Source: Ignavibacteria bacterium
Lineage (GTDB): Bacteria; Elusimicrobiota; Endomicrobiia; PHAN01
NCBI GenBank assembly: GCA_041694835.1
Contig: JBGFRZ010000032.1
Location: forward strand, 57-64,056
Direction: 5' to 3'
Length of the DNA stretch: 64,000 bases
In this document: positions 995-36,996 of the stretch, one piece after another
Layout of the letters: each line of letters begins with the position of its first letter
Position numbering within the stretch: the stretch's first letter is position 1
Translations under genes and position numbers: made by a program
Notes under the pieces: model-generated
Seen by the model: only the letters and a program-made list of their open reading frames with translations
Told to the model about the DNA's origin: nothing
The model's database searches: none

Positions 995-2397
995 CAGGGA
1001 TTACCTGTCCATTTGTAATTAGTGAGATTAAATCCGCAGTTAGGCCTCCAACAGTATCCCTTCTCGCCGTGTGAAAAACAGTTCAAATCCTCTTCTCTGT
1101 CAACACCCGACGCGATGAGGCCGGCGAAAATACGAATATAAAAATTAGCCCTCGTCGAAGCGTCGTATTTGAACCACTGCGGACCCCACTGGTAATTTCT
1201 TTCAAGCTTTGATCTTACCAGCCCGGCGATATGTTTCGGATGCCATCCTTGCTTCATAAGGACCCTTGTGAGCGTTTGGAGGTTTGTTGGCCTGAGTATG
1301 TTGGGATTGGGCTCCCCGATGCAGTGAGCCACGCACGGAGGCAAACCCGATAAATCCAATCTGTCATAAGTACAGTGCCACTTCTCCGGATGATCGTGCT
1401 CTGCTCCATCGAAGTATTTGTGAAATTTATAAAGTTCCGAACGTTTGTAGGAGTTTATCAGCCTTTCTGCCCCGGCGGAGGATTCGGGGATAGTGGTGTC
1501 GGAAGTTTTTGCGTAATTAACCGCCGCATCAAAACTTTTCCTAACATTCAAAAGTTCGGAGAGATTCGGAGCGTATCTGGGAAGCGTGATAAGGGCGGGA
1601 ATTGCCATCGACGTGGATTCGCCGAACTTGCATTTAAAAATTTTGTGCTTCTGGTAGAGAGAAAAAGGACATCTGACGTCTCTCATAAAAACCGGATCGC
1701 CGTACATCGAAAGATCGATAGATATCGCTTCCTTGTTTTTGCCTATCGCGGTGTCGGTGAATACAACGGGCATGCCGACGTAATCCTTTCTCAGGCTCTC
1801 GAAAACTCTGTGTCCCAGGTATTCCAGGAGCCTTCCCATGCCGTCGAAAGCGAGGCCGTCTTCTATTTTGACTTTGTGCACTCTTTTGCCGTGAGTTGAG
1901 TTGTATTTGCCGACGAGAGAGCTTTCCAACTTTCCCAGCGATTCCAGCTGCTTTTTTACGGGGGAAGATGATGTTACCCTGAAACTGAAATGATAACCCT
2001 GTCCCGTCATTATGCACAGCGGATTTATCCCGAAATCCTGAAAGAGCGCAAGGAGTTTCTGATAAACAGGCTCTATCGAGTTGTATGTTCTTTCCTGTTT
2101 CCAATAAGCGTCGGCGGGGTGGACGAGGTTGAAATACTCTACATCCAGGATGCCGAGAATGTTTTCGGCGTCCCACACCGACCTGAAAAGATCGACTTCT
2201 TTTTCAAGAAGCCAGTTGAAAGATTTTCTGTCGGTGGAATAAAAATACTCCTCCGAAATCCCCTCCCTGACCATTTTTTCGCTGACGCCGACCAGATATA
2301 CTGCGGTGAATGTATCGGGAACATCCGAATTCCCCCCACAGTATTGCGCCAGCCTATGCCTTATAAGAGGATTTTTGTAAAATTCGTATCTATTCAT
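994..2397 (-). CDS. Conserved hypothetical protein with Cys-rich C-terminus; possibly carbohydrate-active; no domain confidently recognised
   Basis: 467-aa uninterrupted ORF; overlaps the downstream gene stop; neighbours are sugar-nucleotide genes. Confidence 0.35.
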   Translation of the reverse strand: MNRYEFYKNPLIRHRLAQYCGGNSDVPDTFTAVYLVGVSEKMVREGISEEYFYSTDRKSFNWLLEKEVDLFRSVWDAENILGILDVEYFNLVHPADAYWKQERTYNSIEPVYQKLLALFQDFGINPLCIMTGQGYHFSFRVTSSSPVKKQLESLGKLESSLVGKYNSTHGKRVHKVKIEDGLAFDGMGRLLEYLGHRVFESLRKDYVGMPVVFTDTAIGKNKEAISIDLSMYGDPVFMRDVRCPFSLYQKHKIFKCKFGESTSMAIPALITLPRYAPNLSELLNVRKSFDAAVNYAKTSDTTIPESSAGAERLINSYKRSELYKFHKYFDGAEHDHPEKWHCTYDRLDLSGLPPCVAHCIGEPNPNILRPTNLQTLTRVLMKQGWHPKHIAGLVRSKLERNYQWGPQWFKYDASTRANFYIRIFAGLIASGVDREEDLNCFSHGEKGYCWRPNCGFNLTNYKWTGNP

Positions 2398-3122: not shown

Positions 3123-3790
3123 ATATCCTCCAAGGATTTGTCTATGTTTCTTCTGTCGTTTTCAGGGGTAATTATGCCTCCCGTTATTATAAGTTTTATC
3201 GCATCGTCAACACTCATTTCAAGCTCTATTGTGTCCTGTTGCGGAACAAACAGGAGAAAGCCAGTGGTGGGATTGGGGGTGCTGGGCAAAAACACGTTTA
3301 CAACTTCCTCTTTTGTCTTTGCCTGAACCTCGCCCATGGCTGTGGCCGTCACAAACCCTAAAGAGTAAACACCCCTTCTGGGATATTCGATTAAGACAAC
3401 CTTCTTGAACGCTTTTCTTTTTGTGAATATGTAAACAGTAAGTTTTCTTACGGCCGTGTATACCTCCTTCAATATCGGAACCTTTACAAAAAGGCTCTCG
3501 AGTTTTACAAGCAGTCTTCTTCCGGCTATATTTGTCGCAACCACCCCAACAAGCCAGACGGCAAAAAGTGTTACAAAAAAACTCAGGAGTCTCCCGAAAA
3601 ACCTGCTTTCCTCGGGCTCGAAGAATATGCGAAAAATCGGTGTTATCACCGGAGTAAACACCCCGCTTACAAGTTTGAAGATAATCCACAAAACGTTCAA
3701 CGTTACCCATAATGGAAGAATAGTAATTATCCCGGTGAACAGATATCTCATTATGTTGCTTTTTGCAGCCTGCTTTTCCATATTTTTCAC
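3119..3790 (-). CDS. DUF502-family membrane protein
   Basis: N-terminal TM helices; sequence typical of DUF502; 4-bp overlap with neighbouring genes. Confidence 0.55.
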   Translation of the reverse strand: MKNMEKQAAKSNIMRYLFTGIITILPLWVTLNVLWIIFKLVSGVFTPVITPIFRIFFEPEESRFFGRLLSFFVTLFAVWLVGVVATNIAGRRLLVKLESLFVKVPILKEVYTAVRKLTVYIFTKRKAFKKVVLIEYPRRGVYSLGFVTATAMGEVQAKTKEEVVNVFLPSTPNPTTGFLLFVPQQDTIELEMSVDDAIKLIITGGIITPENDRRNIDKSLEDI

Positions 3791-5226
3791 CTCTTGATGA
3801 AGGACTCCCCGATCGCGGCGAGTTTTTTAAGCTTAGACGCAGAAGATGTTTCAAGATACAATCTTACCACGGGCTCGGTGCCGCTCAGTCGTATTCCGAG
3901 CCACGACGAATCATCAAATATGAACTTATATCCGTCGATGGTGATTGTTTCTGCAACCTTTATGCCGTCGATTTCTTTCGGAGGATTTTTCGAAAGCCTA
4001 TTTTTCAGCCCTCCCATCTGCTCCTGCGTCAAATGAAAGTTCAACCTCTCGGTGTGGACTTCTCCTACGAGAGCCATAATTTCAGAGAGTATTTCCTTAA
4101 GCGTTTTTTTCTGAACGCATACGGCTTCAAGTGCAAGCAGGCAGGCAAGAATTCCGTCTTTTTCCGGGACATGTCCCCTTACGGTCAGTCCTCCGGACTC
4201 TTCTCCACCTATGATGAAATCCCCCTTTTTCGAAGGATACGCTGAGTTTTCCCTGACCATATAATCGCCTATATATTTAAACCCGACGGGGGTCTCTATG
4301 ACATCGACCTTGAAATGTTTTGCGATATTGTCTATCAGATTCGTCGTCATTACAGAGCGGACGACAGCGCCTTTGTATTTCTTTTCTTTTACGAAATGAT
4401 AAAGCAAAATGGAGAGAATATGATTGGGTGTTATGAAACTTCCGTCGGCGTCTAAAACGCCAAATCTGTCAGCGTCGCCGTCGGTCGCGACGCCAAGCCT
4501 CAGTTTTTCATCCTTCATCACACCGTAAAGATTTTTAAGGTTCTCTCTTGATGGCTCAGGCGAACCGCCTTCAAAAAGAACATCCCTTTCCTCATTTAGA
4601 ACCGTTATGTCGACACCAGCCTCCTCGAGTATGTTGTCCAGATATCCTATGGCCGTACCGTGAAGGAGATCGACGCCTATTTTAATTTTAGACTTTCTTA
4701 TCTCATCCAGATCGACGAGCGTTTTTATATACTTTAAGTAACTCCCCGAAGGATCCACCATTTCAAGAAGTTTGTTTTTAGCTGCATCTTTCAAATCCAT
4801 CCTTTTTACTTTTAATCTTGGGGATTCGCAGTATTTTTCGACGACTTGCGTTACATTCGGGGTGGCAGCTCCGCCCGTCGAGGGAGAAAACTTCAGCCCT
4901 TGATATTGATACGGATTATGACTTGCCGTGAAATTGATGCCGCCGGAAAGCTTTCTTCTTATGATATCAAAGGATATAACCGGCGTTGGGGTATCCCTGT
5001 TGCAAAGAAACGTCTTTATTTCGTTCGCACAAAGAACTTCGGTGGCAGATTCTGAAAACTTCTCCGAAAGAAATCTCGTGTCACCCCCTACAATTACGGA
5101 AGGTCTTTTTGAATGAATCTTGATGTAATTCGCTATCGCCTGTGTTAGGAGCCTTACGTTCTCAAATGTAAATTCATCGGCTATTATCGCCCGCCATCCC
5201 GATGTGCCGAATTTTATTTTTGACAT
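3787..5226 (-). CDS. Phosphomannomutase/phosphoglucomutase
   Basis: Active-site motif TASHNP, GGEESGG sugar-binding loop, DGDADR metal-binding loop. Confidence 0.85.
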   Translation of the reverse strand: MSKIKFGTSGWRAIIADEFTFENVRLLTQAIANYIKIHSKRPSVIVGGDTRFLSEKFSESATEVLCANEIKTFLCNRDTPTPVISFDIIRRKLSGGINFTASHNPYQYQGLKFSPSTGGAATPNVTQVVEKYCESPRLKVKRMDLKDAAKNKLLEMVDPSGSYLKYIKTLVDLDEIRKSKIKIGVDLLHGTAIGYLDNILEEAGVDITVLNEERDVLFEGGSPEPSRENLKNLYGVMKDEKLRLGVATDGDADRFGVLDADGSFITPNHILSILLYHFVKEKKYKGAVVRSVMTTNLIDNIAKHFKVDVIETPVGFKYIGDYMVRENSAYPSKKGDFIIGGEESGGLTVRGHVPEKDGILACLLALEAVCVQKKTLKEILSEIMALVGEVHTERLNFHLTQEQMGGLKNRLSKNPPKEIDGIKVAETITIDGYKFIFDDSSWLGIRLSGTEPVVRLYLETSSASKLKKLAAIGESFIKR

Positions 5227-20071: not shown

Positions 20072-21043
20072 TTAACCTGAACGCCCGACCAGATATGCCG
20101 ACTTTCGCTTTTTTTCAATCAGATATCTACCTACAGAAAGACGACGGGATGAAATGTCTGACAAAAAGGCATTTATCCTGAAGAATAAATCAAAATCAAG
20201 CGGGCGACCGAGCCAGCTTCTTACCACCTCATACCTTACTATGTTATTATACCGAAAAAAGTGGGATAAATCAAGAACTCCGTCGGTAACACAACTGACG
20301 ACCGCCTTTTTTGAATACGCGGCAAAAAAATCGTCCAAATCGCAAAGCAACGACGAAAGGTTGTTCAGATGCCTTATGACCGAAGGCCTGAATTTTTCAA
20401 GATATGGAATTATTTTGTTTCTGATTTTGTTTCTGAAAAATTTATCGCTCAAGTTGGTTTTATCAAGTGAATATCTGAATCTATTTTGCGAAAGATATCG
20501 CATTATCTCTTTTTTCTCAAAAAAAAGAAGTGGTCTTGAGACGCAAACCTTCGGTGAAAGCCATCTTTTCAACGGAATGCCGGCAAGACCTTTAAGACCG
20601 ACTCCCCTGAGCAACCACATTATTACCGTCTCGGCGTTGTCGTTCGCGGTGTGGGCGGTCATTATTTTATTGAAACCGTTTTTCACGGCAATATCAAGGA
20701 GATTTTTGTACCTTAAATCCCTTGCCTCTTCTTCGATAGACGCCATTTTCTGGAGATGAATTTTTCTGACGACAAATCTCCATTTGTAAGAACCGGCTAT
20801 TTTTTTTACAATATCCACGTCTTTTTTTATCTCAGAGCGAGGCCTGATAGGGTGATCGAAATAGACAAGGATAGCATCGATATTGAACAATCTCCGATAT
20901 TTTCCCAGAAGGTGAGCAAGACAGACAGAGTCCACCCCGCCTGATATGGAAAGTATTATTCTGTCGTTTTTTCCGATGAGTTCGTACTTCTTGCAGTTTT
21001 CGGCGAATTTTTTATCAAGCATTAAGGTGGGGGTCGAACCCAC
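20072..21043 (-). CDS. tilS: tRNA(Ile)-lysidine synthetase
   Basis: PP-loop SGGVDS; conserved tilS-hpt-ftsH order. Confidence 0.85.
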   Translation of the reverse strand: MGSTPTLMLDKKFAENCKKYELIGKNDRIILSISGGVDSVCLAHLLGKYRRLFNIDAILVYFDHPIRPRSEIKKDVDIVKKIAGSYKWRFVVRKIHLQKMASIEEEARDLRYKNLLDIAVKNGFNKIMTAHTANDNAETVIMWLLRGVGLKGLAGIPLKRWLSPKVCVSRPLLFFEKKEIMRYLSQNRFRYSLDKTNLSDKFFRNKIRNKIIPYLEKFRPSVIRHLNNLSSLLCDLDDFFAAYSKKAVVSCVTDGVLDLSHFFRYNNIVRYEVVRSWLGRPLDFDLFFRINAFLSDISSRRLSVGRYLIEKKRKSAYLVGRSG

Positions 21044-21079
21044 GACCTACGGCTTACTCGCCCCGCACCTTTTTATAAT
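21030..21079 (-). pseudogene. tRNA 3'-half fragment (TAAGCCGTAGGTCGTGGGTTCGACCCCCACC) plus an inverted-repeat spacer downstream of the intact tRNA
   Basis: Matches the anticodon-stem 3' strand through the T arm of the adjacent tRNA, diverges at the acceptor stem, overlaps the tilS 5' end. Confidence 0.4.
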
Positions 21080-21151
21080 TTACCAGGGGTGGGGATTGAA
21101 CCCACGACCTACGGCTTATGAGTCCGCTGCTCTACCACTGAGCTACCCTGG
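21080..21151 (-). tRNA. tRNA with anticodon CAT (elongator Met or lysidine-modified Ile2)
   Basis: Minus-strand sequence GCCAGGGTAGCTCAGTGGTAGAGCAGCGGACTCATAAGCCGTAGGTCGTGGGTTCAATCCCCACCCCTGGTA folds as a cloverleaf (D arm GCTC/GAGC, anticodon loop CTCATAA, T loop GGTTCAATCC). Confidence 0.75.
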
Positions 21152-21200
21152 CATTAAAAGGTGCGGGGCAAGTCCGCTGCTCTACCACTGAGCTACCCTG
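21152..21200 (-). pseudogene. tRNA 5'-half fragment (GCAGGGTAGCTCAGTGGTAGAGCAGCGGACT) plus an inverted-repeat spacer upstream of the intact tRNA
   Basis: Near-identical to positions 1-33 of the adjacent tRNA and ends inside the anticodon loop. Confidence 0.45.
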
Positions 21201-21322
21201 CTAAATTTCAGTATATTGAAACCGTTGACGCTTCGCTAAAACCCGGATTTCGTGTATCTGCACCCGTCTTACGGCGCTAATTTATCAATGAGGGCACCGC
21301 AAGGCAGTGCTCGCACAAAGAC

Positions 21323-31535: not shown

Positions 31536-34500
31536 TCATCTTGATACCGTCACAGTTCCGTTTATTACTTTGTCGTCGGATTCAATCTGATAGATATAAA
31601 TTCCCGAGGGCACTTTGTTTCCGAATTCGTCGTCGCCATCCCACCTTAAAGATGTTTCACGGTTTGGTCCCCTTTTATTCAGTTTTTTGACAAACCGCCC
31701 CATTTTGTCGAATATAAATCCGACGACTCTTTCTTCAATTCCCGGCGGGCCGTCAAAATTTATAATCAAAAAATCATTTTTATTGTCGCCGTTCGGGGTT
31801 ATTATTTTCGGATAAACGTCATCTTTTCCTACCGAGAATGTTGAGCGATTCGTTAGTTTTAGTTGAAATTTTCCCAGAACTGACGCTGCCACTGAAATCG
31901 TCTTGTTGAATCTGTCGACGGCACCACCGAATCTGATCCATCTCACTCCGTTGAACCAGTAAACGGCATACTCGCTTTCATAAGAACCCGGGGACATCAC
32001 CGCAGAACCCCTGTCAAAGTAAGTAAACGATATATTGAAAGTTTGTTCTTTTGGAACATTTTTTTCTTTATTTGATTTTATATCCCGAAGTGCTACAACA
32101 AAAGATTTTACCACGCGGCCGATTTTTTCCTCAGGCACTTCTGTAATCCTGAGCACTGAGTTCTCAGGCAAAATGGCCGATGTCTCAACAAACAAGTCTT
32201 TATTGTCGCTCATTACTATTATAACCGGCGCAGTCTTCGATGCCACTATTGCCGACGGCAGGCTTTCGTTTGAATATATATCCACAGCCTTTATCGTGTA
32301 ATAATAAACGTTTTTTTTTGTGTCTTGAGAAAATTCGTTCGACTTTAACGGAAGCATCGTTATTTTTTCGTATATCCCATCCATCGAAGTGCTCCTGTAA
32401 ACAAGATAACCGTCGATGTCGTAAATCGGGCTCAGGTCCTCGTTGTATTTAACTTCATCCCAAAATATTTGAAAAATCCCGCCCGAAAAACTCCCGCGAA
32501 CTCCGGTGGGAGCAAGTGGGGGCATTTTATCGACGACCTTATCGGTCATAACGTTGACAATATCAGTAGGGGCGGTTATTATTCCGTCGCCATTGAAGCC
32601 ATATAGACGGTAGTAGTATGTGGTGGAATGGCTCAAATTTCCATCGGTATAAGTTGAAGAAGAACCAGATATATTGTCGCTTACAACTGAAAAAAATAAG
32701 CCGTCAAGGGATCTCTCGAGTCTAAACTTGCTGGAGCCGCCCGTCGGAGATTGCCAGGAGAGCGTAATTGAATTTTTTGTTTTGGCTATACTCCCCAAAT
32801 TTCCGGGCGGATTGGCCAGGGTGTATTTTGAAACTACCGATGAACCGAATGAAACGCCGCTTGCATTCCCCGCTTTGATATATCTTGAATATTGTGTATT
32901 GGGTTCTAAACCGATTTCGTTCCAAGATATTGTTTCGTTTCCTTCAAGATTTTTCAACAGATGATTATCACCGGCTCTATAAATCTGATAATATGTCGCA
33001 GATGATGTTATCTCCCATGTCCAGTTGATCGCCACCGTGCTAACGGCTACCCCGCGAAAACCCAACGGCTCTGAAGGAATTGCCGGAAGTGTGATAGTTG
33101 AGATTGTTGTATCATATATCGTGGGTATACCCTCGCTATTGAACGCCTGAACCTTGTAGTAATATGTAGTCGCAGGCTCTAACCCTGCCGAGTCAGTAAA
33201 TGTTGTGCCCGTTTGGTTGTTTGCAAATGAGCTCAAGGTAAAGGTAGAGGTGAAGAAGTTATTCGTTGAGCGCAATACTCCCCATCTGGTTGATGCCGGA
33301 TTTCCGTTATTGCTCCATGTGATTTCTATTGAATGTGAAGTCCTCTTTAAAACATAACTATCAACGGGTGGCATCGCCATGGTATATCTTGAAGCGACGT
33401 TGGATGAAGATATTGATACGCTATTATATGCCGCCACATACCTGCTATAATTAGTATTAGCGGAAAAATTAGTTTCAAGCCAGATCGTCGTTCCGTGCGG
33501 CAACTCTGATAGCAATGCGTTTGTGGAACTAAATATCCTGAAACCATCTTCGTCAGGGGAGTTGTCTTTCCATGACCATAAAATCGAACCTGTCGACAAA
33601 ACCATGCCGCTAAACTCCGAAGGAGCGGATGGAACTCCGATGGGGCGGGTTGAAACGACGGAGGAAAAGGCACTTATAAAAATCTGCGGTGGAGCATCGT
33701 AAGAGTTCATCTTGTAAAAATATGTCGTTCCGTTGGTGACAGAGGTATCAACATAAGTATTGCTACGCGTAGTTCCTATAAGGGAATAGGTATTTCCGTC
33801 GGTTGAACGGTGAATTTCGTAGTAATCGAAGTCAAGATAACCGAGCTGCCCGAGCATATCATTCCAAAAAAGCTCAACCAACCCGCTTGAAGCCACTGAT
33901 TTGAGCCCGGTTGGAGGAGCGGGAACAATATCAAGGGCATAGCTGAACGCCTGTGTGAGCGACACAGTCGGCTCATCGATGGGAGAGATATTTCCGTCGG
34001 CGTCTTTTGATTTAATTGAAAAATAATATGTTGAAGAAGGGAAAAGACCGGAAATTCCGGTAATCTCTTCGGAGCCTGGAGATTGGGGGGACGGTGTATT
34101 ATTAAGCGAAGTGGCGACACTCCACCATGCAGTGGTATCTCCCAAAAGTGAGTTTATGGAAAACGTGGCGTATTTTATGATGTACTCTGAAACTTTCTTG
34201 TTCTGAGGAATATCTCCGGGGGCAATCCATGAGAGTTTGATCTCCCCTTCGCTCGCCCCTGTTACAGCAACAATGGATGTAACCGCTCTCGGCGGATAAA
34301 TATCCGCGATATAGTGTGAATTTTCATCCGACCATACGCTCTTCAACAAGCCCGAATCTATTGAAGCAACTGAAAAATAATATGTCGTTCTTATGGCAAG
34401 TTTTTTTATCAATATACTGTTAGTCGTGCCGATTCTTTTGGGCCTCGGATAGTTTCCCGAAAACGGTGTCGCCCATTGCGGACTCACGACATAACTTGAA

Positions 34501-36581
34501 GGGTTTATGCTGAAGGGGGCCGTCGCCATCCTGACAAGATAGTTGAGTGACTGCTGAGGTGTTTTATCATCGGAACCGTCTTGAAAAGATATGACCAGAT
34601 TTTCGTCGATATATTCTGCGATTGGCCCTGGCGGAGCTGATGGCGCAGCGTTGATTTTACCTGAATCTCTGTATGTGTTTTTGTAAATTCTTATCAAATT
34701 CGAAATGCCCGAAGACGGCGACCCCGAAACGACGAGATCCAGATCCCCATCGTTGTCTATGTCGCCGAAAACGACCGATGAGAGCTGGAGACCGAGATTC
34801 TGACCAAGAATCTCCTGGTCGGAATAAAACGTTCCGGAAGAATTCTTAAACAATATAAATCTCAAAAGACCGTTATTGTCCCTCCCTGTCACAACAATAT
34901 CCGGCCATCCGTCGGTGTTGTAATCGCCGAAGGCAAGCGAGCTATTGTCAACACCTGCAGCCAAACCCATTGGCTCCTGGTCGAGGCTAAAAACACCGTT
35001 TGTATTCTTAAAAAGAATAAGCCGTCTACCAGATGCTGTTCCATCAATTGTTCCGCTTACCGCTATATCCAGATCGCCGTCGAGGTCGTAGTCGCAAAAA
35101 GCCACAGAGCCGTTCTCAAGACCGATATTGACACCTAAGGGTTCTTGGTCGATTAAAAAAGTTCCGGAAGAATTCCTAAATAAAATGAATCTCCTGTTGC
35201 CTGTCGTATCTCTGCCTATGGCAGCAAGGTCAACCCATCCATCTTTGTTGTAGTCGCCGACGGACAGTGCCGAGTTGGAAAGCCCTGTCAAATCAAAACG
35301 CATCGTAAAACTTGAATTGTTGTTCTCATACACCCTTAAGTATCTGTTGTTGGGCAAACTACCAGGTCCGATGCCGCTTACGACAATGTCGTTGTCACCG
35401 TCATTGTCGAAATCCATCAAAACAACACACCCCATGACAAATCCGTCGGCGGAACCCATTGGTTCGCTGTCCAGAACAAACGGTGGAGTGCCGGAGGTGT
35501 TTCTGTAAACAAAAAATCTCCTGGTTGAGCCGTCAGGTGAACCGACCGCGATCTTGTCATCTTTACCGTCGGAATTTATGTCGCCGAAATAGAGGGAACT
35601 AGCCTGAAGGCCGACGGGAAATTCCTGCCACAACGAAAAATTTCCGACAGAATTTCTGTATATAACGTTTTTTCTGCTCACACCATCAAAGCCGCTGACA
35701 GCCAAATCTATGTAGCCGTCTGTGTCTATATCCGAAAAAGAAAAGCCGTTTTCGCTCGACAAAACATCACGAAGCCCCTCGAATGTTTGTGAGAGAAAAA
35801 AAGACGACGATACTGCAGTCGCCGTAGATGACCAGTTTGACTGGTTAGAGTTTTCGTCGAATGCAGATATCCATATATAGTGGGTGGCCGACGGGAGGAG
35901 CGAGGTGAGCATGAAGACATGGCTTGTGGCTGGTGAAAAATTCGATGATATAGAGATTTGATAAGTCGCTGTTTGCGGTGTGTCGGAAGGATTCGTTGAA
36001 TATCTTATTAAAAATCCGCCGCCGACTACCGAGCCGTTGTAAACATCATCGCCGGGAGCCGTCCATGTAAGTAAAATCTGGGCGGACAGCGTCGCCGAAA
36101 GATTCGTGATCTGCCCGGGAGGCAGTAAATCCCTCTGCGCCCAAGATGTAGCGGCATTAGAGATTGGAGAAAAGTTGGCAGGCGGAGATGATGTCCAAAT
36201 TCTGAAAAAGTATGTCGCCCCGCCGGTCAAACCGGTTATTGTGTGGCTTTGCGGCGCGCCGGAATTAACATTTGATGTGGATATTCTTATTTGCGCCGAA
36301 GCGGTTGACCAAACAACGTCGGAATCCTGCGAATGCTGTATGAAATATGTCGAACCAACAGGGAGGGAAGATGGACCGGGATACATCCATCCCAACACAA
36401 CCCCGCCTTCGGACTGCCCCCGGGTGGCGTTTAGATTTGTAACGGGGGACGGCTGGGCCGAAAGATAAAAAGGCCCCGCTATTAAAAAAAAGACAATTAG
36501 CGCTCCGTGACAAAAATAAAAAGCCCCCGCAAACCCGCGGTGGCTTGTAGATAAATGACTGACAAAATTAATTTTTATCAT
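31536..36581 (-). CDS. Large (1681-aa) secreted FG-GAP/fibronectin-III repeat protein with a T9SS type-B (CHU_C / gliding-motility-associated) C-terminal sorting domain
   Basis: At least six DxDxDGxxD FG-GAP calcium-binding repeats (e.g. FGDINSDGKDDKIAVG, GDIDNDGDLDLVVSG); Fn3-like segments; C-terminus ITPNGDNKNDFLIINF...LRWDGDDEFGNKVPSGIYIYQI typical of type-B sorting domains. Confidence 0.75.
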   Translation of the reverse strand: MIKINFVSHLSTSHRGFAGAFYFCHGALIVFFLIAGPFYLSAQPSPVTNLNATRGQSEGGVVLGWMYPGPSSLPVGSTYFIQHSQDSDVVWSTASAQIRISTSNVNSGAPQSHTITGLTGGATYFFRIWTSSPPANFSPISNAATSWAQRDLLPPGQITNLSATLSAQILLTWTAPGDDVYNGSVVGGGFLIRYSTNPSDTPQTATYQISISSNFSPATSHVFMLTSLLPSATHYIWISAFDENSNQSNWSSTATAVSSSFFLSQTFEGLRDVLSSENGFSFSDIDTDGYIDLAVSGFDGVSRKNVIYRNSVGNFSLWQEFPVGLQASSLYFGDINSDGKDDKIAVGSPDGSTRRFFVYRNTSGTPPFVLDSEPMGSADGFVMGCVVLMDFDNDGDNDIVVSGIGPGSLPNNRYLRVYENNNSSFTMRFDLTGLSNSALSVGDYNKDGWVDLAAIGRDTTGNRRFILFRNSSGTFLIDQEPLGVNIGLENGSVAFCDYDLDGDLDIAVSGTIDGTASGRRLILFKNTNGVFSLDQEPMGLAAGVDNSSLAFGDYNTDGWPDIVVTGRDNNGLLRFILFKNSSGTFYSDQEILGQNLGLQLSSVVFGDIDNDGDLDLVVSGSPSSGISNLIRIYKNTYRDSGKINAAPSAPPGPIAEYIDENLVISFQDGSDDKTPQQSLNYLVRMATAPFSINPSSYVVSPQWATPFSGNYPRPKRIGTTNSILIKKLAIRTTYYFSVASIDSGLLKSVWSDENSHYIADIYPPRAVTSIVAVTGASEGEIKLSWIAPGDIPQNKKVSEYIIKYATFSINSLLGDTTAWWSVATSLNNTPSPQSPGSEEITGISGLFPSSTYYFSIKSKDADGNISPIDEPTVSLTQAFSYALDIVPAPPTGLKSVASSGLVELFWNDMLGQLGYLDFDYYEIHRSTDGNTYSLIGTTRSNTYVDTSVTNGTTYFYKMNSYDAPPQIFISAFSSVVSTRPIGVPSAPSEFSGMVLSTGSILWSWKDNSPDEDGFRIFSSTNALLSELPHGTTIWLETNFSANTNYSRYVAAYNSVSISSSNVASRYTMAMPPVDSYVLKRTSHSIEITWSNNGNPASTRWGVLRSTNNFFTSTFTLSSFANNQTGTTFTDSAGLEPATTYYYKVQAFNSEGIPTIYDTTISTITLPAIPSEPLGFRGVAVSTVAINWTWEITSSATYYQIYRAGDNHLLKNLEGNETISWNEIGLEPNTQYSRYIKAGNASGVSFGSSVVSKYTLANPPGNLGSIAKTKNSITLSWQSPTGGSSKFRLERSLDGLFFSVVSDNISGSSSTYTDGNLSHSTTYYYRLYGFNGDGIITAPTDIVNVMTDKVVDKMPPLAPTGVRGSFSGGIFQIFWDEVKYNEDLSPIYDIDGYLVYRSTSMDGIYEKITMLPLKSNEFSQDTKKNVYYYTIKAVDIYSNESLPSAIVASKTAPVIIVMSDNKDLFVETSAILPENSVLRITEVPEEKIGRVVKSFVVALRDIKSNKEKNVPKEQTFNISFTYFDRGSAVMSPGSYESEYAVYWFNGVRWIRFGGAVDRFNKTISVAASVLGKFQLKLTNRSTFSVGKDDVYPKIITPNGDNKNDFLIINFDGPPGIEERVVGFIFDKMGRFVKKLNKRGPNRETSLRWDGDDEFGNKVPSGIYIYQIESDDKVINGTVTVSR

Positions 36582-36758
36582 TGTTTCGGTAGCCCAGCCG
36601 GCATCCGTTCAAACCCGAACCCCGTCGCCTTTCAACGACGGATTGTCCCATAACGCGGGATTTAGCCCTGTTGGCTTTGCGTCCCCCGGTTTCCCGGCAT
36701 CCCGACACAAAATCGGAACGTTCCCATATGACCAGCAGGGAAGGTTTGCCTTTGTCGC

Positions 36759-36946
36759 TATAATGAGATTATTGAAAAACCCATCTTTTTCACTTAAAGG
36801 GCAGTTTCTTAACGGTTAAAAGTTTCAATCAGACCGCAAAACTCCTCGCTTTGCTCGTCAGACATTGCGGTCTAAACGATTTCAACTTTTAACCTGAAAC
36901 TGCCAAATCGTTCAAAAGATTAAGGTTTTTCAACGAGCTCATAATA
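36759..36946. mobile_element. Roughly 190-bp imperfect-palindrome element, copy 2
   Basis: Differs from copy 1 at only a few positions; terminal repeats TATAATGAGATTATTGAAAAACC ... GGTTTTTCAACGAGCTCATAATA. Confidence 0.65.
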
Positions 36947-36996
36947 CAATATATATAGTGAAAATAATTTTGTTTGTCAAGGTTTTTTTCAAAACT

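Follow-up and report, generated by a model that had tools for sequence, protein, structure and literature searches.

Disruption of tRNA genes by introns, by splitting or by permutation is textbook knowledge for Archaea and eukaryotes. In Bacteria, to our knowledge, group I introns are the only known interruptions of tRNA genes. Here we describe a stretch of 64,000 nucleotides of DNA (hereafter the window; contig JBGFRZ010000032.1 of assembly GCA_041694835.1, an Ignavibacteria bacterium placed by GTDB in the Elusimicrobiota) in which a complete tRNA gene with anticodon CAT, flanked by an inverted repeat (IR), lies inside the anticodon loop of a second, broken copy of the same tRNA, directly before the tilS gene. 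It would be a third kind of bacterial tRNA interruption, in which the gene is interrupted by an entire, functional copy of itself that a helix insulates.

Several described systems resemble this locus in part. In the archaeal split tRNAs and the tRNAs with bulge-helix-bulge introns (e.g. in Nanoarchaeum equitans), the break also falls in the anticodon loop and GC-rich complementary sequences lie beside the halves. Here, however, the host is a bacterium, the halves flank a complete tRNA in cis, a bulge-helix-bulge motif is absent, the outer copy cannot rebuild a mature tRNA and no splicing endonuclease is implied. Group I introns (tRNA-Leu UAA, tRNA-fMet, the tRNA-Ile CAU of Azoarcus) are bacterial insertions into the anticodon loop, including that of CAU tRNAs, with a patchy and probably horizontal distribution. 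They usually exceed 200 nt, whereas the insert of the window has 114 nt, possesses no intron core and is itself a tRNA, so that the host gene is replaced and not spliced. In tRNA duplications at attachment (att) sites, partial copies flank an intact tRNA and the breakpoint falls in the anticodon loop; in contrast, both halves are duplicated in the window, which shows neither an integrase, nor an island, nor a shared core at the junctions.

Two further parallels concern the IR. The long leader-trailer helix (21 bp in the window) recalls the RNase III stalks that enclose structured RNA in rRNA operons, but it surrounds a single tRNA, its cleavage is putative, and the corresponding helices in bacteria of the Candidate Phyla Radiation (CPR) have 5-7 bp. 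Like miniature inverted-repeat transposable elements, the insert is a short non-coding unit with terminal IRs (21 nt, 90%) and with ends conserved across hosts. Unlike them, it has no target-site duplication and no second copy in the 64 kb, and its target and its cargo are the same tRNA; we know of no transposase for a tRNA-in-tRNA cassette. Full-text literature searches returned no account of nested bacterial tRNA genes, which is not a proof of novelty. The presence of the same cassette ends in distant CPR bacteria, presented below, suggests an undescribed kind of tRNA-in-tRNA insertion.

Organization of the nested locus

Coordinates are those of the window, and the element is read on the minus strand. 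In this direction, the order is outer 5' half, left arm x, intact tRNA-CAT, right arm x', outer 3' half, the trinucleotide TTA and the ATG of tilS (21022). The outer 5' half (21171-21201; GCAGGGTAGCTCAGTGGTAGAGCAGCGGACT) corresponds to positions 2-33 of the resident tRNA described in the next section, and 30 nt of it are 100% identical to the inner tRNA. It is followed by the inserted cassette of 114 nt (21057-21170), whose limits were set by alignment with four relatives and which consists of x (18 nt, 21153-21170; TGCCCCGCACCTTTTAAT), the inner tRNA (72 nt, 21081-21152) and x' (24 nt, 21057-21080; AATTATAAAAAGGTGCGGGGCGAG). The inner tRNA has its anticodon CAT at 21120-21118, a G1-U72 pair and A73, and CCA is not encoded. 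The outer 3' half (21026-21056; TAAGCCGTAGGTCGTGGGTTCGACCCCCACC) covers positions 36-65 and is identical to the inner tRNA at 29 of 31 positions. In all, the outer copy is devoid of positions 34-35 and 66-73. The tilS gene (20072-21022, also on the minus strand) encodes 316 aa and starts, with its ATG at 21022-21020, 3 nt past the outer 3' half.

Analysis with find_repeats gave a 30-nt direct repeat of 100% identity (21171-21200 and 21121-21150), a 31-nt direct repeat of 94% (21026-21056 and 21088-21118) and a single IR of 21 nt, 90% complementary, whose arms (21153-21173 and 21056-21076) enclose 76 nt. Repeats of this length within 500 nt cannot have arisen by chance. ARAGORN and Rfam alike called one tRNA-CAT at 21081-21152 on the minus strand, and the RF00005 score of the inner tRNA was 69.1 bits, with a gathering score of 29. 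The arm motif AAAGGTGCGGGGC was found in both arms and had no other copy in the window, and the ends of the cassette read CCCCGCACCTTT and AAAGGTGCGGGGCGAG.

The nested tRNA-in-tRNA arrangement is thus confirmed. An original prediction, made from the letters of the window, had placed all of these elements on the minus strand, as borne out by the sequence, find_repeats, ARAGORN and Rfam. It was right about the adjacency to tilS, but it had put the tRNA downstream of this gene, when the unit stands immediately upstream of it on the same strand; likewise, the 3' tRNA fragment that it described is present but lacks the acceptor 3' strand. On the practical side, tRNA finders report the inner gene alone and miss such pseudo-halves.

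The resident tRNA gene in related Elusimicrobiota

The locus was compared with those of four related Elusimicrobiota, namely L002, which has the closest TilS (61% identity), and L132, L133 and L134, which were found through FtsH. All four carry one plain uninterrupted tRNA at the matching site, within a shared gene order (open reading frames (ORFs) of 254 aa and 404 aa, tRNA, tilS, hpt, ftsH, folE, folP, cdaA, glmM). This tRNA reads GGCAGGGTAGCTCAGTGGTAGAGCAGCGGACTCATAAGCCGTTGGTCGTGGGTTCGACCCCCACCCCTGCCA, with minor differences in L002. It is followed in L132 and L134 by the spacer GTTTTCTTTTTT and then by the tilS ATG, and a similar U-rich spacer is found in L133.

Diagnostic bases distinguish the two copies of the window. 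The acceptor strand of the relatives is GGCAGGG, of which the outer half keeps GCAGGG (positions 2-7, G1 being changed to A), whereas the inner tRNA has GCCAGGG. The acceptor stem of the latter, GCCAGGG/CCCTGGT, combines a compensated change at 2:71 with the G1-U72 pair. In the T-loop, TTCGACC is common to the outer 3' half and L132-L134, and the inner tRNA has TTCAATC. Because the outer halves carry the diagnostic bases of the resident gene and the inner tRNA carries others, the alignment shows that the 114-nt insert (21170-21057) split a resident tRNA gene, replacing its C34-A35. The proposal of an IR/tRNA/IR unit lodged inside a second tRNA copy split at the anticodon loop, for which a comparison with related genomes had been suggested, is therefore upheld by the single tRNA of the relatives and by the diagnostic bases of the outer halves. 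The 3' acceptor strand of the resident gene is gone as well, as is the U-rich spacer (about 19 nt): L132 and L134 have CCTGCCA followed by GTTTTCTTTTTT between the endpoint of the outer 3' half and the tilS ATG, and the window has TTA only.

The original prediction had also pointed to tRNA-fragment duplications as classic scars of site-specific recombination. According to this explanation, the two halves would be att scars left at the anticodon loop by a tyrosine integrase after deletion of its island. The anticodon loop is a classic class-I attB sublocation, both fragments end in it, and pseudo-anticodon hairpins can be drawn (GCGG-ACTTGCC-CCGC and GCGG-..-CCGT). Nevertheless, we regard this origin as very improbable. 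Between 23382 and 13853 (about 9.5 kb), the window and L132 are colinear with no additional gene, and neither an integrase nor an island is present at the locus. Integration duplicates one side of the target, whereas here the 5' and 3' halves both flank the tRNA, and the insert comprises 114 nt only. Furthermore, the loops at the two junctions (ACTTGCC and GGCGAGTAAG) share no core, no direct repeats indicative of a target-site duplication were seen in the sequence of the junctions, and phage and plasmid collections matched the tRNA part alone, with at most 48% cover. Scans of viral contigs for the arms gave zero or chance-level matches. Two viral matches to x plus the start of the tRNA were discarded as nests, as the one in L135 was the 3' end of a neighbouring tRNA and the one in L136 stood outside any tRNA context.

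Other RNA elements were searched for in the window unit and the nested loci with Rfam, at gathering and at relaxed thresholds (E<=5 for the window, E<=1 for six nested loci). No ribozyme, intron, riboswitch, GOLLD/ROOL, Y-RNA or transfer-messenger RNA was detected, and the 114-nt insert gave no match to the group I intron core (Intron_gpI) even at E<=5. The sole non-tRNA matches were weak, sub-threshold hits to cis-regulatory families of plastids, antisense to the tRNA: RF04354 (Plastid-ycf2 5'UTR) at 21080-21152 on the plus strand of the window and at the same place in six loci, with RF04351 in addition in L090 and L059. The RF04354 match was judged uninformative; this family seems to capture an antisense CAU-tRNA-like shape. 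Nor did ARAGORN, run with introns allowed, recognize an intron-bearing tRNA in the outer copies.

Nested loci with homologous cassette ends in CPR bacteria

Many of the 120 loci inspected showed 5'-half-like sequence upstream and/or 3'-half-like sequence downstream of an intact tRNA. With a strict test for half copies (a 24-mer no more than 250 nt from the tRNA, up to 3 substitutions being allowed), a 5' copy was found upstream of 7/102 tRNAs of the studied family and a 3' copy downstream of 2/102, with 0/30 for initiators and 0/28 for other tRNAs.

The arm sequence of the window recurs in L122 (Candidatus Uhrbacteria) and in L012/L115 (Parcubacteria). L122 reads ..GGGACTTTCACCCCGCACCTTTCTTA-[tRNA]-AAGGAAAGGTGCGGGGCGAGTAAGCCGTTGGTCG.. 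and its neighbour gene znuA gave access to L129 (ENA; 2243-1900, minus strand) and L130 (NCBI, Parcubacteria GW2011_GWA2_46_9; 736-393, minus strand), in which a three-layer nest is present with identical sequence in two independent assemblies. There, two 5' halves follow one another, both with ..ACACCCCGCAC(C)TTT at their end, and then come the intact tRNA-CAT, the right arm and a single 3' half. Layer 1 reads GCAGGGTAGCTC[hairpin]GTAGAGCAGCGGA-TACACCCCGCACTTTTTTGA, layer 2 reads GCCAGGGTAGCTC[about 130 nt]AGAGCGAAAGA-TACACCCCGCACCTTTCTTA, and the intact tRNA is followed by AAGGAAAGGTGCGGAGAGG-TAAGCCCTAGG...

When the outer half, x and the start of the next tRNA of the window were aligned with layers 1 and 2 of L129, 52 of 63 positions (83%) were identical, and the acceptor strands follow one another in the same succession, GCAGGG then GCCAGGG. 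The x' region is identical to that of L122 at 31 of 34 positions, including the whole 16-mer AAAGGTGCGGGGCGAG, and CCCCGCAC(C)TTT is unchanged at all four junctions of the window, L122 and L129. The helices of the window and L122 differ at one base pair, where the T-A to C-G change is compensatory. Between L122 and L129, both arms are fully conserved, as is the nest around them, while the tRNA stems show compensated changes. Within every one of these genomes, the outer 3' half begins as a copy of the inner tRNA beside it (GCCCTAGG and GCCGTTGG; GCCGTAGG in the window). At the level of sequence, these alignments show that the cassette ends are homologous between the window and the nested tRNA-Met loci of Uhrbacteria and Parcubacteria.

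These loci also bear on the suspicion of an assembly artefact, to which a single metagenome assembly of the organism and 30-nt repeats within the locus could give rise. We find such an error hardly credible, as homologous nests occur in independent ENA, NCBI and JGI assemblies (the same nest also in L012 and L115), the repeats are shorter than usual assembly k-mers, and the copies differ at positions that make evolutionary sense.

A second CPR group (L033, L060, L097, L102, L108, L088, L025, L083, L053, L059, L090 and L078) has shorter arms that are divergent yet complementary, such as GCAATT/AATTGC, GAAATTT/AAATTTC, AAAACTT/AAGTTTT and, with G-U pairs, GCGGTT/AATTGC. Its right arm ..TTGCGCAGAG.. 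resembles the ..GTGCGGAGAGG.. of L129.

Various side observations were made on these nests. A hairpin CCCCAACGACTGCGGC..GCCGAGTGTTGGGG at the D-loop position of the outer 5' half of L122 (~3840-3875, plus strand) and L129 (~2170-2135, minus strand) is nearly identical in both except for its loop, with one stem difference, against an identity of only 66% between the ZnuA proteins of these two Parcubacteria. It has the look of an RNA motif under constraint. In several CPR nests (L060 ~3715-3880, with the element on the minus strand; L108; L102; L078; L122 4075-4115), the T-arm of the outer 3' half is exchanged for a GC tetraloop hairpin, GGTCG-CCCCGC-TAAG-GCGGGG, after which come an acceptor-like strand, ACCA and, in most of these nests, the nearby ATG of the next gene (3-5 nt on in L060 and L102). 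L060 and L108 have in common a long 3'-side hairpin with a compensatory change from GGAATT/AATTCC to AGAATT/AATTCT. In L108 (minus strand), some 165 nt ahead of the tRNA (3498-3572), three 5' halves stand in tandem; their acceptors are GGTTGCG, GGCAGGG and GGGTTGA, and each is followed by a CTAG-AAATT-like spacer. The sole 3' half pairs with the outermost 5' strand. An element of ~37 nt, TAGTCCACGAAATGGTCGCAGTACGCGAAGCGGACTA, occupies the T-loop of an outer 3' half in L033 (~1180-1216, plus strand), and a similar copy is present at a D-loop position upstream of the nest of L088 (minus strand); perhaps it is a small mobile element that inserts into tRNA-like sequence. Another type of partial duplication was noticed in L004 (10331-10540, plus strand) and L075 (25-221, plus strand), where a copy of the first ~55 nt of the tRNA, reaching the T-loop, precedes the intact gene; in L075, part of the tRNA leader is repeated too. 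Finally, a reading of the CPR outer tRNAs (..ACT-CTA-G..) as CUA-anticodon amber suppressors was dropped, given that many outer copies have no T-loop.

Identity of the inner tRNA

The inner tRNA is very probably an elongator tRNA-Met, to judge from its identity elements. It combines the CAU anticodon with A73, C3:G70, G1-U72 and the anticodon stem GCGGA/GCCGT. The marks of an initiator (C1xA72 and three G:C pairs at 29-31:39-41) are absent, and about 30 initiators among the loci read CGCGGGG...CCCCGCAACCA, unlike this tRNA.

The proximity of tilS had led the original prediction to propose the lysidine-modified tRNA-Ile(CAU) (Ile2), a proposal that finds no support. According to Silva 2006 (PMC1635315) and to PMC12514573, which quotes the Ikeuchi determinants, tRNA-Ile(CAU) is marked by G3/A3:C70/T70, or by C4:G69 together with C5:G68. 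The inner tRNA has C3:G70, A4:T69 and G5:C68. A 26-mer from the D stem to the anticodon stem places it in a family common to at least 120 metagenome loci, and one of these, L092 (2059-4149, minus strand), contains three CAT tRNAs in 2.1 kb of a 5.5-kb contig: a member of the studied family, an initiator and a third tRNA (GGGCCTA...) with G3:C70, C4:G69 and C5:G68, i.e. the full Ile2 signature. This trio makes a handy reference triad of CAT tRNAs. The family was also found beside a tRNA-Ile(UAU) (anticodon TAT) in seven loci. Since it co-occurs with a separate Ile2-signature tRNA and with tRNA-Ile(UAU), the family is assigned to elongator Met; judged from these other loci, it is not the non-initiator CAU tRNA that stands apart from elongator Met in a genome, which is what Ile2 would be.

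In three more distant Elusimicrobia (L124, L126 and L128; TilS 36-39% identical), the tilS-hpt-ftsH order is kept and a tRNA directly upstream is absent; L128 has an initiator-type tRNA-CAT ~2 kb upstream of tilS. The adjacency of tRNA and tilS is therefore not an ancient functional coupling and, confined as it is to one clade, does not imply Ile2 identity.

Origin of the cassette

The explanation that we favour for the locus is the recent acquisition of a tRNA-Met cassette whose family is otherwise seen in CPR bacteria. As we reconstruct it from sequence comparison, and with reasonable rather than high confidence, a resident tRNA(CAU) gene before tilS, most likely of elongator Met, was split by an IR-flanked cassette that carried a tRNA of the same isoacceptor and had arrived horizontally. 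Either the cassette or an already nested allele would have been transferred, and fixation would most plausibly have occurred by recombination of the incoming nest-bearing DNA, the conserved tRNA halves acting as homology arms. Such recombination would also account for the stacking of layers and for the concerted changes of inner and outer copies. Alternatively, the entry route may have been an unknown site-specific activity or a dedicated enzyme.

A purely local origin would require no foreign DNA: slippage or unequal crossover would have duplicated part of the resident tRNA, the copies would have diverged and the IR would have arisen in place. The 5' halves are indeed identical at 30/30 positions, a lineage-specific A at 44/45 is present in both copies, direct repeats favour local rearrangement, and the three tandem 5' halves of L108 could be read in this way. 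But a tandem duplication yields direct and not inverted spacers. Moreover, it is the functional inner copy that has diverged (2:71, 72 and two positions of the T-loop), and the pseudo-copy that keeps the ancestral states. Above all, a 16-nt arm identical to that of Uhrbacteria and 83% identity to a layer junction of L129 cannot be convergent, and the same cassette ends are already seen in other phyla. We consider local origin improbable for these reasons.

Several points nonetheless weigh against horizontal insertion into the resident gene. No insertion enzyme or mechanism was identified at the locus, the homology arms are short (about 30 nt and 15-20 nt), and the window locus is known from one assembly. 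Both copies of the window have A at 44/45, where the relatives have T, and this needs either conversion or a donor-derived tract, to which we attribute it. In L088, L083, L078 and L108, the outer acceptor stem and ACCA are intact in spite of differing sequences. Inserted hairpins, too, are maintained through compensatory changes between L060 and L108 and between L122 and L129. The outer layers of those CPR loci may therefore be functional, for instance as tRNA-like processing signals before the next gene. Lastly, we infer every RNA processing step set out below.

More tentatively still, and with some doubt on our part, horizontal insertion might be generalized to a family of tRNA-in-tRNA cassettes in which a Met gene with conserved IR ends lands in the anticodon loop of a resident gene, replaces its function, stacks to three layers when further copies land in the inner tRNA, and has crossed from CPR/Patescibacteria to Elusimicrobiota, outer layers in CPR having maybe been co-opted as tRNA-like structures that process or regulate the downstream gene. 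If true, this would be an element, selfish or neutral, that destroys an essential gene and persists by taking its place, and an example of a conserved tRNA sequence used as a universal landing pad for horizontal transfer.

Predicted transcription, processing and effect on tilS

The inner tRNA would be the working gene now. A single precursor is expected to contain the 5' half, x, the tRNA, x', the 3' half and tilS, and to start probably from the promoter-like motif TGTATAATGAGCTCGCTGAAA at 21346-21326 (minus strand), which has TATAAT at 21344-21339 and lies ~130 nt upstream of the outer 5' half. Three copies of this motif are present in the window (21346-21326, 25439-25419 and 36948-36928, all on the minus strand; chance expectation 0.01) and each stands upstream of a minus-strand gene or operon. 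Upstream of the tRNA of the relatives, the sequence is TTTTTGTA[G/A/T]AAT. The motif is probably a promoter plus a start-of-transcript motif, representing a strong promoter type of this genome. The -10-like hexamer TATACT noted in the original prediction does exist (21215-21210, minus strand), at 8 nt and not 9 nt from the outer 5' half; read from the sequence and not reported by a consensus promoter scan, it is a possible, weaker alternative.

When the 191-nt stretch was folded, a nested structure was obtained with the arm helix around the cloverleaf (minimum free energy (MFE) -84.7 kcal/mol, z = -5.35), and the inner cloverleaf was itself the MFE structure (-29 kcal/mol). The x/x' helix has 21 bp, including one G-U and one mismatch, where about 20 bp or more is the length of an RNase III stalk. 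It extends the anticodon stem, and a bulge of 2 nt interrupts a single side. The leader/trailer duplexes of the window (-42.7 kcal/mol) and L122 (-39.0 kcal/mol) are outliers with respect to the median of 107 loci (-12.3 kcal/mol). A role of this helix as a processing stem, put forward at the outset, is plausible. It would close the inner cloverleaf as a domain of its own, preventing mispairing with the identical outer halves, and it is long enough to offer an RNase III site.

Maturation of tRNA by RNase P and RNase Z is well established. The two enzymes would release the inner tRNA, RNase Z being invoked because CCA is not encoded, as in the relatives. The outer halves, which have neither an anticodon nor the 3' acceptor strand, would be relics, the 5' half now forming part of the leader and the 3' half the 5' untranslated region (UTR) of tilS. 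Consequently, a structured 5' UTR of 59 nt would replace the 12-nt U-rich leader of the relatives in the tilS message, and tilS translation is probably changed.

The relatives themselves give some indications on this message. Their tRNA has no encoded CCA (L132 2419-2506; L133 2335-2423; L134 1-69; L002 1401-1504), and the spacer to tilS is 12-13 nt long, U-rich and devoid of a Shine-Dalgarno sequence in L132, L133 and L134, and 28 nt long and not U-rich in L002. On account of the missing CCA, the short U-rich spacer and the missing Shine-Dalgarno sequence, the 5' end of tilS mRNA in this clade of Elusimicrobiota is probably made by tRNA 3' processing. For the window, x' (AAGGUG) as a bridged Shine-Dalgarno sequence for tilS was set aside as too speculative, at 45 nt from the AUG.

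Should the outer halves and the helix have been retained as a functional RNA device, they might control tilS, by occlusion of the AUG or as a tRNA mimic bound by TilS, or they might form a platform for processing of the tRNA-tilS co-transcript, in the manner of tRNA-like punctuation. In the window, 4 nt separate the T-arm hairpin of the outer 3' half from the tilS AUG, the MFE fold pairs AGCA/GGGU of the outer 5' strand with ACCU..UGCU across this AUG, and the usual U-rich spacer is lost. In CPR nests, the ATG of the next gene comes 3-5 nt past ACCA in L033, L102, L060 and L025 (further off in L108 and L078), and, as mentioned above, compensatory changes accompany the conservation of the outer acceptor stems and of the inserted hairpins. 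We hold such a device to be unlikely. The four relatives express tilS from a locus without any such structure, the outer copy of the window is deprived of the anticodon loop that TilS needs as well as of the acceptor 3' strand, and, taken by itself, the processed tilS 5' UTR is not more stably folded than shuffled sequences (z = -1.7). In addition, the genes downstream of the nests vary (Trbp111-like, DUF21, membrane proteins, tilS), and in L060 the two outer strands come from different layers and cannot pair. Nor does the window conform to a mimic leader of the thrS type, as C34-A35 is absent from the outer copy and the relatives have no structure.

Neighbouring genes

The TilS protein of the window starts with MLDKKFAEN...SGGVDS and is of the short type, with PF01171 as its only Pfam domain. 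The start at 21022 is backed by alignment of MLDKKFAEN with MLEKRFAE (L134, L002) and with similar starts in L132 and L133. On the minus strand, tilS is followed by hpt, ftsH, folE, folP and cdaA, and the FtsH protein, with 76% identity to that of HGW-Elusimicrobia-1, assigns the organism to Elusimicrobiota. A contig scan with TilS of the window gave as its sole match a 29% identical protein of Chlorobiaceae, which was of no use for comparison, and an exact look-up of this TilS found no entry.

At a distance from the nested locus, a cyclic di-GMP-I riboswitch was detected at 36585-36760 (minus strand; Rfam 39.5 bits, gathering score 35). It lies directly upstream of an ORF of 1681 aa (31536-36581, minus strand) and is preceded by the copy of TGTATAATGAGCTCGCTGAAA at 36928-36948.

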